Assembly (NCBI RefSeq): GCF_054482525.1
Contig: NZ_CM137006.1
Direction: 5' to 3' (one strand)
DNA: 64,000 nt
The notes beneath the pieces were generated by a model. That model saw nothing but the letters and a program-made list of their open reading frames with translations, did no database searches and was not told where the DNA came from. Position numbers and translations under genes: made by a program. Positions 4,764-10,581 of this stretch are shown here, piece after piece (position 1 is the stretch's first letter; every line of letters starts with the position of its first letter).

Positions 4764-5765
4764 TTAAAATAGCATTTGAGTCAAATAGCCCATCAAGATA
4801 GCCATACCTAAGATAACCGTCAGGAATGCAACTATCATCGGTATTCTGAACATTGATTTAAGTAATATCACTTCCGTCAGGCTTGCGCCGGCACTGCCGA
4901 TGATTAATGCCATTAATGCTCCCAGACCCATTCCTTTTGTCATCAGAACAGATGCCAGAGGGATAACCGCCTCTGCCCGGATATACAGCGGAATACCGAC
5001 AACGGCGCTCAATGGGATGGCGAAGGGATTATCTGCCCCTGCATGAGCGGCAATCCACTCTGAGGGAATAAAGCCATAAATAAAAGAGCCTATTAATACC
5101 CCTAACAAAAGATATGGCAGTACATCTTTAAACTGTTGCAACGCATCTTTGGTGGCTAGTTTTATGGGATTAATACTTACCACAGCTTTGGTACTGCAAC
5201 AGTTTACTACAGGTTTCTCAATGGCTTTAGCCGCTGGACTACAGCAACTCACTTTTATTGGCGTATATGTCGTCCCCGGCGAAGTTTTGGCTGGAGCACA
5301 ACAATTTGCTGATGAGCTTTTACTGGCAATGATATGACGTTCAAATCCCAGGGAATCCAGGATAATACTGGCAAGTACGGAGACGCCGGCGGCGATAATC
5401 GCGTACAACAAGGTAACTTTCCAGCCAAAGGTCACCCACATTAACCCGACGATAATGGGATTAAGTAATGGGGAAACAAATAAAAAAGTGAGGGTCGGGC
5501 CGAACCCGGCTTTCGCTGACAACAATCCACGTAACATTGGGATTGTCGAGCAACTACAGAACGGGGTAACGGCTCCCAACAGAGCCGCCAGGAGATAGCC
5601 TCTCCCTTTTCTGGCCCCCATCATCTGCTGGATTTTATGGTCTGGCACCTTTTGTCTTATCAGGCTCACACCGGCACTAATCACTATAAACAGCAAGGAA
5701 AGCTCGACGGCGAGAAACACAAACATCTCTGCGGCATCTTGCAGCATCGCAAGCCAACTACTCAT
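4764..5765 (-). CDS. ArsP-like (DUF318/YraQ-type) permease with a TPFCSCS motif; putative organoarsenical efflux permease
   Basis: Multi-TM protein with GAVTPFCSCSTIPMLRGL (motif at 5547-5567) and a loop with three vicinal Cys pairs (NCCAPA, VSCCSP, VNCCST; 5196-5303); start refined to the ATG at 5765 (GAGG 6 nt upstream); divergent from an ArsR-family gene. Confidence 0.65.
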   Translation of the reverse strand: MSSWLAMLQDAAEMFVFLAVELSLLFIVISAGVSLIRQKVPDHKIQQMMGARKGRGYLLAALLGAVTPFCSCSTIPMLRGLLSAKAGFGPTLTFLFVSPLLNPIIVGLMWVTFGWKVTLLYAIIAAGVSVLASIILDSLGFERHIIASKSSSANCCAPAKTSPGTTYTPIKVSCCSPAAKAIEKPVVNCCSTKAVVSINPIKLATKDALQQFKDVLPYLLLGVLIGSFIYGFIPSEWIAAHAGADNPFAIPLSAVVGIPLYIRAEAVIPLASVLMTKGMGLGALMALIIGSAGASLTEVILLKSMFRIPMIVAFLTVILGMAILMGYLTQMLF

Positions 5766-6213: not shown

Positions 6214-6639
6214 CTATTTCAGGCGTTTACCCGCTTCATCAACCACTTTCTCGCCATCTTCCTTGGTGAACGCGCGTTGTTGCGCATCTGGCAGAATTTC
6301 CAGCACCACTTCTGAAGGGCGGCACAGGCGAGTTCCCAGCGGCGTCACCACAATCGGGCGATTAATCAGAATCGGGTGCTGAAGCATAAAGTCGATTAAC
6401 CGATCGTCAGTAAATTTATCTTCTGCAAGGCCCAGTTCCTCATACGGCTCGACGTTTTTACGCAGCAGCGCGCGTACGGAAATCCCCATATCGGCAATGA
6501 GTTTGACCAGTTCATCACGCGTCGGTGGGGTTTCCAGATAATAGACAATGGTCGGTTCTGTGCCGCTGTTGCGGATCATCTCCAGCGTATTTCGCGACGT
6601 GCCGCAGGCTGGGTTGTGATAAATGGTAATGTTGCTCAT
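6214..6639 (-). CDS. arsC: Arsenate reductase
   Basis: 141 aa ORF starting MSNITIYHNPACGTSRNTLEMIR; last gene of arsRBC. Confidence 0.9.
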   Translation of the reverse strand: MSNITIYHNPACGTSRNTLEMIRNSGTEPTIVYYLETPPTRDELVKLIADMGISVRALLRKNVEPYEELGLAEDKFTDDRLIDFMLQHPILINRPIVVTPLGTRLCRPSEVVLEILPDAQQRAFTKEDGEKVVDEAGKRLK

Positions 6640-6651
6640 ATCGGTATCTCA

Positions 6652-7941
6652 TTACAAAGTGAAAGAGAGGCGTAGCGCCAGCGCAGCCAGCGTTACAAAC
6701 AGCACAGGCAGGGTCATGATAATCCCTGTACGGAAGTAATATCCCCAGCTGATAGTCATATTCTTCTGCGAAAGTACGTGCAGCCAGAGTAGCGTAGCCA
6801 GGCTACCAATTGGGGTAATTTTCGGCCCCAAATCGCAGCCAATCACGTTGGCATAAACCATCGCTTCTTTGATAACGCCAGATGCCGTGCTGCCATCAAT
6901 GGACAACGCGCCAACCAGTACCGTCGGCATATTGTTCATAATAGAAGAGAGGAAGGCGGTGAGGAATCCGGTGCCGAGCGTCGCGGCCCACAGGCCGTTT
7001 TCCGCCAGCACGTTGAGTACGCCAGAAAGATATTCCGTTAGTCCGGCATTGCGCAGGCCATAAACCACCAGATACATGCCGAGCGAGAAGATGACAATCT
7101 GCCAGGGCGCACCGCGTAGCACCTTACCCGTATTAATCGCATGACCGCGTTTAGCGACGACAAATAATATCAACGCGCCCACTGCCGCAATGGCGCTGAC
7201 CGGAATGCCGAGCGGTTCCAGGACGAAAAATCCCACCAGCAGAAGCAGTAAAACAACCCAGCCAGTTTTGAACGTAGCAGGATCTTTAATCGCTTCTGCG
7301 GGAGATTTCAGCAGCGCCATGTCGTAGTTCTGCGGAATATCTTTGCGGAAATAGAGATGCAACATCACCAGCGTGGCAACAATCGCGGCGATATCCACCG
7401 GCACCATCACCGAGGCATATTCGCGAAAGCCGAGGCCAAAGAAATCTGCGGAAACGATATTCACCAGGTTGGAGACAATAAGCGGCAGGCTGGCGGTATC
7501 GGCAATGAATCCGGCCGCCATCACGAACGCCAGCGTAGTGCCTTTACTGAACCCTAAAGCCAGCAGCATGGCGATGACAATTGGCGTTAAAATCAGCGCC
7601 GCACCATCATTGGCAAACAGAGCTGCAACGGCAGCACCGAGCAGGACAATCCAGGTGAACAGCAAGCGACCGCGTCCATTGCCCCAGCGTGAGACGTGCA
7701 GCGCTGCCCATTCAAAAAAGCCGGACTCATCCAGCAGCAGGCTGATGATAATAACGGCAATAAACGCAGCCGTCGCGTTCCAGACGATATTCCACACCAC
7801 CGGAATATCACCCGGATGTACCACGCCCGTAACTAACGCCAGTACTGCGCCGAGTGTTGCACTCCAGCCGATGCCTAAACCTTTCGGCTGCCAGATAACC
7901 AATACGATGGTCAGGACAAAGATAGCGCCTGCCAGTAACAT
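6652..7941 (-). CDS. arsB: Arsenite efflux pump ArsB
   Basis: Start refined to [13 protein letters not shown] (GGGAGG RBS 4 nt upstream), giving 429 aa; polytopic membrane protein. Confidence 0.9.
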
Positions 7942-7995: not shown

Positions 7996-8349
7996 TTAAC
8001 TACAAATGTTCTTACTGTCTTCGGAACAATTTTGTCGAGCCAAGTTGCGGACAATCACCTGAACCTTTTCCTGTTCGCATCGCCAGGCCTGCTCAATAAT
8101 TTTCGCGGCCCATGATGGAATATGCGGTGATAAGCGGTAATGAACCCACTTACCCTGCTTGCGATCCAGCAATAGCCCACTTTCACGCAGCAATGCCAGG
8201 TGGCGGGATATCTTGGGCTGCGACTGATCGAGGGCAGTGCAGAGATCGCAGACGCATAATTCTCCCAGCTCGCTGAGCAGTAAAACGATGCCCAGACGGG
8301 TTTCATCAGCAAGAATTTTGAACAGTTGGATGGGTAACAGAAATGACAT
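7996..8349 (-). CDS. arsR: Arsenical resistance operon repressor ArsR
   Basis: 117 aa with the metalloid-binding ELCVCDLC motif in the HTH region. Confidence 0.9.
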   Translation of the reverse strand: MSFLLPIQLFKILADETRLGIVLLLSELGELCVCDLCTALDQSQPKISRHLALLRESGLLLDRKQGKWVHYRLSPHIPSWAAKIIEQAWRCEQEKVQVIVRNLARQNCSEDSKNICS

Positions 8350-8500
8350 ATTGCGCTCCTGATTGTTGCAGGTAGTGTCTCTCTTCGAAGCGGATAAGTC
8401 AAAAATATATATGGTTTAACGAATGTGTATGTGCAGAGGAAGGTAATAGGTGTGAATTTTGAGTTGGCTATTTATTTGAAAGGAGGTCTGAATCAGGACG

Positions 8501-8586
8501 TAAAAAAACCGACTTTGCGTCGGTTTTTTACTTTCCAGCCCTGAGTTGGTGGCTCTGGCCGGAGTGAGAATGCCCACATCTAACGG
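8501..8586 (-). ncRNA. agrB: Antisense sRNA of the dinQ locus, copy proximal to arsR (agrB-like)
   Basis: About 90 bp repeat unit; 33 nt (GCTCTGGCCGGAGTGAGAATGCCCACATCTAAC) identical to a segment of the dinQ leader at 8986-9018; ends in an intrinsic terminator (stem CCGAC/GTCGG flanked by A7/T6); agrA/agrB assignment from recalled K-12 order. Confidence 0.5.
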
Positions 8587-8734
8587 TTCAATACTATTAG
8601 CCAGTGGCTAACATTGCAAGCGTTAGCGATTTCTTCAGCTGGCGAAGGGACAGTTTGCTATACATGTTGGTGAAAGAGGATTTATATACTTTCATCGGGT
8701 CGCTGCCGTACCAGGCCTTGTCCGAATCCGGACG

Positions 8735-8820
8735 TAAAAAAACCGACTTCGCGTCGGTTTTTTACTTTGCAGCCCAGAGTTGGTGGCTCTGGCTGGAGTG
8801 AGAATGCCATCATCTAACGC
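8735..8820 (-). ncRNA. agrA: Antisense sRNA of the dinQ locus, second copy (agrA-like)
   Basis: Second copy 234 bp from the first, with several mismatches to dinQ in the complementary segment; same terminator structure. Confidence 0.5.
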
Positions 8821-8882
8821 ATCAATGCTAATACCATACTGAAACTATTGCAAGGACATGCTGGTTTTATAACCTGTATGTA

Positions 8883-8898
8883 CTGTATGATTATCCAG
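8883..8898 (+). promoter_or_regulatory. LexA box (SOS operator) upstream of dinQ
   Basis: taCTGTATGATTATCCAGtt fits the CTG-N10-CAG LexA consensus, about 190 bp upstream of the dinQ ORF. Confidence 0.6.
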
Positions 8899-9091
8899 TT
8901 AGTTCTGAGGCATTTTCACTCTGGTAATGCGCATAAACGCTTTCAAAGTCCTGGTCAGAAGTACGGGTGGTGCCGTTAACTGATGCTCTGGCCGGAGTGA
9001 GAATGCCCACATCTAACAATGGGGCATGCGCCGTGACAGGCAGTGGATGAGTAAGCGGATGCATTCTCACTCCATCGCATGGAGAAAACGG

Positions 9092-9175
9092 GTGATTGAT
9101 AAAGCAATCATCGTTCTTGGGGCGTTAATTGCGCTGCTGGAACTGATCCGCTTTCTGCTTCAGCTTCTGAACTGA
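9092..9175 (+). CDS. dinQ: SOS-induced toxic membrane peptide DinQ (27 aa, GTG start)
   Basis: GTG ATT GAT AAA... encodes VIDKAIIVLGALIALLELIRFLLQLLN, a single hydrophobic helix; GGAG RBS 7 nt upstream; a 6-codon upstream mini-ORF (ATG at 9079) overlaps the start. Confidence 0.7.
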   Translation: MIDKAIIVLGALIALLELIRFLLQLLN

Positions 9176-9191
9176 TAGCGGAAACGTAGCT

Positions 9192-9222
9192 AAGGGCAAA
9201 GAGCACACCACTCTTTGCCCTT
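9192..9222. terminator. Hairpin between the convergent dinQ and gor genes
   Basis: AAGGGCAAAGAG-cacacca-CTCTTTGCCCTT, 12 bp perfect stem, just 3' of both genes. Confidence 0.5.
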
Positions 9223-9228
9223 TAACAT

Positions 9229-10581
9229 TTAACGCATGGTCACGAACTCTTCTGCCGCCGTCGGGTGAATGGCGACGGTATTGTCGAAGTCTTTTTTGGT
9301 CGCCCCCATCTTCAGCGCCACCGCGAAGCCCTGCAACATTTCATCCATACCAAAACCAATGCCGTGAATTCCGACAATCTTCTCTTCCGGTCCAACGCAT
9401 ACCAGTTTCATGCGGCACGGCTGGCGGTGAGTGGTGACGGCGGTATACATCGCGGTGAAAGAGGATTTATACACTTTCACCTGATCGTCGCCGTACTGCT
9501 CGCGCGCCTGCGGTTCCGTTAAACCAACAGTCCCAATCGGCGGATGGCTGAAGACCACGGTCGGAATGTTGCTGTAATCGAGATGCTCATCCGGCTTGTT
9601 ATTAAACAGGCGTTCAGAGAGACGGCGACCCGCTGCAACTGCTACCGGTGTCAGTTCCACTGCACCCGTGTTATCGCCCACCGCGTAAATACCTTCAACG
9701 TTGGTGTTTTGATATTTATCGACGACGATATAGCCTTTTTCGTTGGTTTTAACGCCAGCGGCTTCCAGGTTGATGTTGTCATTGGCAGGCTCGCGACCAA
9801 TCGCCCAAATCAGGCAATCCACCGTTTCACTACGCCCATCTTCCAGCTCCAGCGTCAGGCTGCCATCGGCATTTTTCACCACCGCTTTCGGGATGGCATT
9901 GGTATGCAACTGTGGGCCTTCGGCGTTCATCACTTCGACCAGCGTTTCAGAGATCATCGGGTCGAAGCTGCGCAGCGGCGCGTGTTTACGTACAAACAGA
10001 TGCGTTTTCGCGCCGAGGCCGTTAATCACGCCCGCCAGTTCAACGGCGATGTAACCCGCGCCAACAACCGCTACGCGCTCTGGCAGCGCCGGAAGGGCGA
10101 AGAAGCCATCAGAATCAATACCGTATTCCACGCCCGGAATATCCGGGTGGCTCGGACGACCGCCGGTGGCGATCAGAATATGATCGGCCGTGATGGTTTC
10201 GCCGTTTACCTTCAGCGTTTTGGCATCAACGAAGCGGGCAAAGCCTTTGATTACATCAACGTTATTTTTACCGAGCACGTTTTCATAGGAAGTATGAATA
10301 CGGTCGATATAGGCGGTACGGCTGGCGATCAACGTTTCCCAGTTGAATTTATTGATAGTGGTATCGAAACCATAATCCGGACCGTACATGTGGATCGCTT
10401 CACGGATTTGCGCCGCGTGCCACATCACTTTCTTCGGTACGCAACCGACGTTCACGCAGGTGCCGCCCAGTTCTTTGGCTTCAATCAGCGCACATTTCTG
10501 GCCGTACATAGCCGCGCGGTTGATGGAGGCGATACCGCCGCTGCCGCCGCCGATGGCGATGTAATCATAGTGTTTAGTCAT
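9229..10581 (-). CDS. gor: Glutathione reductase
   Basis: 450 aa; FAD site GGGSGGIAS and redox-active disulfide [13 protein letters not shown]. Confidence 0.95.

Follow-up and report, generated by a model that had tools for sequence, protein, structure and literature searches.

How did a piece of gor come to lie between the two small RNA genes of the dinQ-agrAB locus, and does it have any function there? The window (the whole stretch of DNA that we analysed, 64,000 nucleotides of contig NZ_CM137006.1, assembly GCF_054482525.1) contains the E. coli arsR-gor interval, with dinQ and two AgrB-family sRNA genes in between (Table 1). A first-pass annotation of this DNA had pointed out that 8669-8712 matches 37 of the 44 positions of gor at 9454-9497. 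The coordinates and the count are reproduced here, and the true match is longer (44/53). From the comparisons described below, the sequence at about 8634-8711 is very probably a pseudogene relic without function, derived from the 3' part of gor (residues 363-387) and retaining about 25 of the 450 codons.

The gene order in the K-12 annotation is gor-dinQ-agrA-agrB-arsR; therefore the arsR-proximal sRNA gene is agrB and the dinQ-proximal one is agrA. The functional antitoxin is agrB (Weel-Sneve et al. 2013, PMC3567139). The relic is situated in a 150-nt spacer, 3' of the agrA terminator and 5' of the agrB promoter. The first-pass annotation was right to place the gor-like segment just upstream of one agr repeat, and both RF02891 and the K-12 annotation identify this repeat as agrB. 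Since the relic abuts the agrB promoter region, the spacer is wholly explained as the agrA 3' flank, followed by the relic, followed by the upstream region of agrB. Both flanking agr copies score above the Rfam RF02891 gathering score of 40, but the relic interval has no above-threshold match to this family, just a plus-strand one of 24 bits (8676-8766), which runs into the agrA terminator. The relic is inside the dinQ-agrAB locus but outside any agr unit, and the K-12 record has no annotation on this stretch.

Table 1. Features of the arsR-gor interval, in coordinates of the window.
Feature	Position	Strand	Remarks
arsR	7996-8349	minus	
agrB sRNA, arsR-proximal	8500-8583	minus	Rfam RF02891, 106 bits
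agrB terminator hairpin	8503-8529		
agrB promoter	-10 at 8591-8596; -35 TTGCAA at 8614-8619	minus	
Probable continuation of the relic, with 2-3-nt indels	8634-8658	minus	Gor residues about 380-387; from the gapped alignment of the K-12 allele
Core of the relic, gor-derived	8659-8711	minus	sense, like gor; Gor residues 363 to about 379-380
agrA 3' flank	8712-8733		joined directly to the relic
agrA sRNA, dinQ-proximal	8734-8817	minus	Rfam RF02891, 98 bits
agrA terminator hairpin	8737-8763		
dinQ LexA operators and promoter	about 8876-8900		
33-nt core repeat in the dinQ 5' UTR	8985-9017	plus	target of the agr sRNAs; repeat analysis; PMC3567139
dinQ CDS, type I toxin	9092-9175	plus	GTG start, 27 aa; annotation of identical loci; PMC3567139
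gor, intact CDS	9229-10581	minus	450 aa
Source segment within intact gor	9417-9496	minus	

The ungapped match extends over 8659-8711 and gor 9444-9496, in direct orientation, with 44 of 53 positions identical (83%). When the intergenic sequence 8350-9228 is aligned locally with the gor CDS the score is 61, while 1000 dinucleotide-preserving shuffles, with both strands considered, score 23.3 +/- 2.2 and reach 33 at most (z = 17, Gumbel p about 1.6e-10). The similarity thus withstands the comparison with shuffled controls that had been proposed as its check. Elsewhere in the 64-kb window, every site agrees with the 53-mer at fewer than 30 positions. The relic keeps the gor reading frame on the minus strand, with a protein-level alignment score of 71 and with S365, P367, M368 and N377 as derived residues relative to Gor. 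It is clear that 8659-8711 and gor are homologous and share orientation and frame.

A gapped alignment of the K-12 allele extends the match leftward to about 8634 (gor about 9417-9420, GCTGGCG). This extension alone is not significant (p = 0.34 and 0.68), and it could be argued from this, and from a match of just 53 nt, that an intergenic stretch resembles a nearby coding region by chance. We consider the probability of this negligible in view of the shuffle p value of about 1e-10 and the kept reading frame; further, the K-12 allele is significant independently and through different bases, and the orthologous relic of E. albertii extends to the stop codon of gor. A MAFFT alignment continues the similarity to gor still further to the left, into the agrB -35 region, at a weak level (about 54%). 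We treat it as spurious because agrA has a homologous promoter without gor context.

To see how the spacer varies within E. coli, we searched it against 5,426 complete genomes; the counts are based on 5422 of them. The full spacer occurs in 3841/5422, and about 1581 (29%) match through gor only; BLAST returns the same 53-nt gor match in genomes that do not have the full-length spacer. In about 810 genomes the spacer is at least 90% identical to that of the window (the W allele), and in about 3,030, K-12 included, it is only about 80% identical (the K allele). The differences between W and K are nearly confined to the gor-like segment, with 18 substitutions in 74 positions (24%) and 5 gap columns, whereas in the agr sRNAs and their promoters the divergence is 2-8% (Fisher p = 8e-5 versus the relic). 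The sequence at 8584-8633, beside the agrB promoter, is well conserved, with 4 differences in 50 positions. There is a 4-nt deletion in the K allele, and strain AW1.7 has an additional deletion of 12 nt.

The K allele is itself similar to gor, with a gapped score of 50 against 18.9 +/- 2.2 in shuffled sequences (p about 8e-9). Its match uses partly different bases (CGGTATAtATCGCaGTG, TTTCAC and ATCGTC) and reaches gor at about 9420. Among 74 sites compared three ways, 44 are identical in all three sequences, 8 have W equal to gor, 11 have K equal to gor and 11 have W equal to K. These classes are interleaved along the segment, which argues against patches of gene conversion. As W and K each keep different gor-identical bases, their common ancestor was more similar to gor than either of them is today.

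The 24% divergence between W and K in the relic exceeds the four-fold-site rate of gor in the same strains, 11.5% (p = 0.013), an excess that neutral decay alone, in a single haplotype history, leaves partly unexplained. A further observation concerns 'E. coli' E69 (CP089930.1). Its gor differs from that of K-12 at 20% of four-fold sites, which is a species-level divergence, but its agrA-relic-agrB spacer is 2-3 nt off K-12 over about 150 nt (L012, 5835-5990). Judged from these sequences, the contrast suggests recombinational exchange of the intergenic region among Escherichia lineages. Old haplotypes, or exchange of the interval between Escherichia lineages, could explain both the W-K excess and the E69 spacer.

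Comparison across Enterobacteriaceae had been recommended for dating the duplication. One genome per species was scanned for relatives of Gor, which gave at least 80 loci; among the matches listed, E. albertii and 'E. coli' E69 represent Escherichia beyond the E. coli type. In E. albertii, dinQ and a single agr stand directly downstream of gor, 93% identical to E. coli, and arsR is absent. The single agr is of agrA type. Its terminator is followed by GATTCGGACAA (the same flank as in E. coli agrA), then by 6 unrelated nucleotides, then by GTACGGC. From here AGTACGGCGGCAATCAGGT is identical at 17 of 19 positions to the species' own gor codons 363-368, and the point where it starts is that of the E. 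coli relic. Another 17 nt further, GCGGCGAAAGAATTCATGACCATGCGTTAA is identical at 26 of 30 positions to the last nine gor codons and the stop codon, and translates as AAKEFMTMR-stop. Taken together the two collinear blocks match gor at 43 of 49 positions, with codons 363-368 fused to 442-450 and the stop. This collinear alignment scores 62 versus 31.9 +/- 4.0 in shuffled sequences, and none of 1000 shuffles scored as high.

The shared junction and the stop codon in E. albertii mean that the relic is older than the split of E. coli and E. albertii, and that it once extended from codon 363 to the stop. Codons 369-441 were later lost in E. albertii, and everything past about codon 387 was lost in E. 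coli. In agreement with the species tree, W and K share the derived GACCC, where the E. albertii relic retains the gor-like state. These observations also bear on a different reading, namely that the gor copy was never longer than roughly 50-80 nt and was put in as templated filler, by template switching during replication, at the time of the agr duplication in E. coli. It is true that little non-repeated DNA besides the gor-like stretch lies between the agrA and agrB units, and a longer copy is present in no complete E. coli genome. However, E. albertii with its one agr has the same junction and the same start, plus the collinear piece that reaches the stop, and homology to plasmids begins there only at the last 6 nt (CGTTAA) of this tail piece. 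In our opinion templated filler is very improbable.

Beyond the relic stop, the DNA of E. albertii NBRC 107761 (L008, 5931-6100) is 93-95% identical to E. coli phage-plasmids of roughly 90 kb, where the matching sequence is annotated as phage tail protein or hypothetical protein. As this DNA is phage-plasmid-like, the original downstream context of the relic has been lost. We had considered a hairpin after the stop, GCCCGTTATATCGGG, as the native gor terminator, given a weak likeness to the sequence downstream of gor in Salmonella, and dropped it because the DNA is phage-plasmid-like from 5931 on. No residual dinQ' or agr' was found beyond the E. albertii relic. The plasmid-like DNA is followed by a pair of ORFs (6445-7157) which may be a HigB/HigA-like toxin-antitoxin pair, and the next ORFs may be slp and dctR. 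E. albertii has no arsRBC here, and the stretch from the relic to the probable slp seems to be a site of variable insertions.

In other genera the dinQ-agr module is patchily distributed. Citrobacter sp. On2M and C. youngae CCUG 30791 have dinQ and one agr downstream of gor (82% identical), placed between gor and a downstream sequence that is common to Citrobacter without dinQ; a gor relic was not detected in either of the two. In Kosakonia sacchari a dinQ-like gene follows gor at a distance of about 750 nt, and variants of the DinQ homologue, proteins of 27-28 aa, are found in Escherichia sp. E4742 and E13S3. An inverted gor-like piece in Yokenella is not a relic, since it sits in a paralogous gene for a disulfide oxidoreductase of 441 aa. 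When positions 8480-9228 of the window were used as the query against plasmids, 2,353 with dinQ/dql homologues matched the region of the dinQ transcript and never the spacer (for the dql family see Kristiansen et al. 2016, PMC5066626). Conjugation is predicted for 2,004 of these 2,353 dinQ/dqlB plasmids, which come from Escherichia, Klebsiella, Salmonella, Enterobacter, Citrobacter and others, with 65-80% identity. A few plasmids, that of Edwardsiella tarda for example, match the agr region too.

Such a distribution (two Citrobacter representatives, Kosakonia, thousands of plasmids) indicates that the module moves, and one might suppose that the relic is a foreign piece of gor, brought from another genus together with the module or with the ars region. 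Yet the fragment is nearest to the gor of Escherichia (83% for E. coli versus 75-81% for other genera), and its inferred ancestor is nearer still. Nor is there discordance between the 5' and 3' parts of gor: across 74-78 species no break in similarity was found at codon 362, whether all sites or synonymous codons are considered (z <= 1.65 in the genera that bear dinQ). With the plasmid dql loci also not matching the spacer, we regard a foreign origin as highly improbable.

How, then, would the relic have arisen? At four-fold sites the gor of the window strain has diverged by 0.115 from that of K-12, and the gor of E. coli by 0.25 from that of E. albertii. The relic differs from gor by 17% in the W core, by about 26% in the extended alignment of K and by 12% in E. 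albertii, a dating that is based on about 50-75 sites. Neutral decay since roughly the time when E. coli and E. albertii split would give similar values, which implies that the two copies were nearly identical at the origin. This in turn speaks for a duplication within the lineage, or for an exchange with a very closely related one. Between gor and the relic the only genes are dinQ and agrA; no ORF there exceeds 59 aa, and hence there is no recombinase gene. In both E. coli and E. albertii, gor and the relic form a direct repeat of the gor 3' end that flanks dinQ-agr.

In the scenario that we propose, a copy of the gor 3' end of about 265 nt would have come to flank dinQ-agr in the common ancestor, giving gor-dinQ-agr-gor'. 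This might have happened by one of two routes: a tandem duplication of [gor 363-450 + dinQ + agr], or a recombination event with its anchor in gor, which installed [gor 3' end + dinQ + agr] and displaced the resident 3' end. In the E. coli lineage the simplest further step would be a second copy of the module, obtained by tandem duplication or by unequal crossover between the gor 3' end and gor'. Deletion of gor' codons 388-450 and of the second dinQ would then have left agrB directly beyond the relic. In some E. coli at least, later recombination between agrA and agrB would have removed the spacer together with the relic. Between agrB and arsR of E. coli a second relic was looked for and not found, and the 5,426 complete E. 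coli genomes contain no second long copy of the gor 3' end among possible intermediates; two dinQ places occur in one genome only.

The earlier proposal that the agr/dinQ repeat block arose from duplication of the gor 3' end and its downstream region has therefore to be divided. The homology is real, and the duplication of the gor end is tied to the module, as the K allele and the stop codon in E. albertii demonstrate. That gor and agrA/agrB were duplicated in one event is not established; in E. albertii the relic occurs beside just one agr. Nor does the gor duplication account for the third repeat, the 33-nt core in dinQ. On the other hand, the order of relic and agrB fits one old tandem duplication of [gor 3' end + dinQ + agr], and so does the fact that agrB and agrA are more divergent than E. 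coli agrA and E. albertii agr.

With the 33-nt core left aside, the identity of E. coli agrA and the agr of E. albertii is 91-93%, but agrB reaches no more than 71-75% with either. This suggests that agrB may also be old, with the reservation that flanks and promoter spacer weigh most heavily in the comparison, and their positions are perhaps only partly homologous. Since E. albertii and Citrobacter have one agr each, of agrA type, agrA is the antitoxin gene in the ancestral position; agrB is the added copy, which later became the working antitoxin. E. coli EC-JS426 also has a single agr, in which an agrA-type promoter and 5' end are combined with an agrB-type 3' flank and arsR-side sequence, without relic. 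Given that in E. albertii the relic stands beside a single agr, the EC-JS426 allele is a deletion by recombination between agrA and agrB and not an ancestral state.

A young and independent case of the same architecture, to judge from its sequence, is provided by Phytobacter ursingii ATCC 27989T. Downstream of its intact gor come 1.37 kb of unrelated DNA and, after these, a second copy of the gor 3' end in direct orientation, 212 nt long and covering residues 391-450 and the stop (97% identical; copies at 5151-5362 and 6735-6946 of L031). Nothing is repeated except the gor end, and the insert encodes an ORF of 324 aa on the opposite strand. The relic copy continues into native downstream sequence that is common to P. 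diazotrophicus, while the intact copy is followed by foreign DNA; these contexts indicate that incoming DNA brought a gor end with it and displaced the resident one.

Displaced gene ends of this kind are familiar from E. coli K-12, where the icd' fragment (icdC) beside prophage e14 / phage 21 is a displaced 3' end of a gene. The likeness is in the arrangement, an intact gene followed by inserted DNA and then by a direct leftover of the same 3' end, which is fresh in gor of P. ursingii. Unlike icd/e14, the present locus has no integrase or att site, and the insert is a toxin-antitoxin module of roughly 0.6 kb without a recombinase ORF. Also unlike icd/e14, the Escherichia relic is old, internally deleted and heavily diverged, and which copy (intact or relic) is the original one is no longer readable. 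Another known process is homology-facilitated illegitimate recombination, in which a homologous anchor on one side is combined with an illegitimate join at the other end, known from natural transformation. It would place a gene end with cargo inside the resident gene and leave the resident 3' end duplicated, as in Phytobacter and possibly in Escherichia. Here it is inferred only, no junction microhomology or donor having been identified for Escherichia.

With some hesitation, since we think it rather unlikely, we would mention a wider reading in which the gor 3' end is a recurrent landing site in Enterobacteriaceae. Incoming DNA anchored in gor would displace the resident end (fresh in P. ursingii, fossil in Escherichia), perhaps the route by which the chromosomal dinQ-agr module moved between Citrobacter, Escherichia and Kosakonia, and the gor/gor' repeats would then have amplified the module and created agrB. 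If this is true, the two very old relic haplotypes of E. coli record exchange of the interval between Escherichia species.

The locus may also be compared with tandem type I toxin-antitoxin loci of E. coli (ldr/rdl, ibs/sib, zor/orz, hok/sok). As in those, an antitoxin sRNA gene has been duplicated locally, one copy (agrA) decays, and copies are lost by recombination between repeats. Unlike those, a piece of a neighbouring housekeeping gene was carried along, marking the boundary of the duplicated segment and allowing it to be dated. That agrA and agrB are 'presumably tandemly duplicated' has been stated before (PMC3567139).

Does the relic have a function at present? The suggestion that it adds potential for base-pairing with gor mRNA does not fare well. 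The relic has the same sense as gor, thus a minus-strand RNA, such as agrA read-through, would be gor-sense, and only a plus-strand RNA could pair with gor mRNA. Such an RNA would be complementary at 44 of 53 positions. However, a consensus scan of 8350-9260 found no plus-strand promoter-like site, the symmetric terminator hairpins of agrB and agrA may block transcription in either direction, and the transcriptome and RNase III papers report no such spacer RNA. The stretch might alternatively modulate the agrB promoter, as the agrB -35 hexamer follows it at about 40-90 nt and it adjoins the well-conserved 8584-8633. Against any regulatory element, whether it acts on gor or on agrB, speak the facts that the relic is the fastest-diverging and least conserved part of the locus, with a rate at or above neutral, that it carries the 4- and 12-nt deletions, and that about 29% of genomes do not have the full-length spacer. 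A regulatory role is, in our opinion, very improbable indeed.

The remaining candidate function is a small protein gene, an ORF of 32 aa at 8597-8695 on the minus strand. The frame is open in the window allele, and PGAP annotates a hypothetical CDS, WP_000968019.1, in strain MN06021. But the 4-nt deletion breaks the frame in the commonest, K-12-type allele, AW1.7 lacks 12 nt more, no evident Shine-Dalgarno sequence precedes the ATG, and the ORF is absent from E. albertii and from roughly 29% of E. coli genomes. It is extremely improbable that this ORF is a gene. WP_000968019.1 (71 aa; L007, 1202-1417) spans the relic together with agrA, and another such protein, WP_001306359.1 of strain elppa4 (L003, 2041-2214), is antisense to dinQ. 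As other alleles carry frameshifts, these hypothetical CDSs are probably annotation artefacts. The relic evolves without constraint and is dispensable, and its present role would be that of spacer DNA between the agrA terminator and the agrB promoter, the comparison of alleles giving no evidence of function.

The gor piece in the spacer is unreported in the dinQ papers (PMC3567139, PMC5066626), which, like two transcriptome papers, mention neither a gor-like segment nor an interaction with gor. It is an unannotated footprint of the formation of dinQ-agrAB and a minor example of displaced or duplicated gene-end relics, which are of a known kind; it reveals no new mechanism and no new regulator of gor. 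What is gained is a datable structural history for a well-studied SOS-regulated type I toxin-antitoxin system: the module already stood beside gor, with a duplicated gor end at its flank, when E. coli and E. albertii diverged. The K-12 arrangement is one of at least three architectures of the locus, which is useful to know when dinQ regulation is compared across strains. Genome annotation may benefit as well, given the spurious PGAP hypothetical proteins over the relic in some genomes.

Several minor observations concern the core repeats. In a class of strains represented by CREC7837 (NZ_CP200274.1) a deletion runs from an agr unit to the dinQ core repeat, corresponding to about 8548-8984 of the window. 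It takes the LexA boxes and the dinQ and agr promoters; arsR/arsB are also gone, but the DinQ ORF has been kept intact. The core repeats of agr and dinQ seem to have recombined here. The 33-nt cores themselves (agrB 8552-8584, agrA 8786-8818, dinQ 8985-9017) co-vary between E. coli haplotypes. In the window the agrB and dinQ cores are identical and both carry GAATGCCCAC, whereas in K-12- and elppa4-type strains both carry GAGAGTTCTT / GAGAGCTCTT; the agrA core is constant across haplotypes (AATGCCATC / ATAGCCATC). The covariation suggests that the toxin mRNA and the antitoxin may co-evolve as allele pairs while agrA drifts. Finally, the dinQ 5' UTR contains a weak full-length match to the AgrB model on the minus strand, antisense, at 8931-9016 (22.6 bits, E = 0.35), and upstream of the dinQ core a gapped likeness can be seen by eye (CTTTCAAAGTCCTGG versus CTTTCCAGCCCTGAG); the dinQ target region may be a degenerate third copy of agr.
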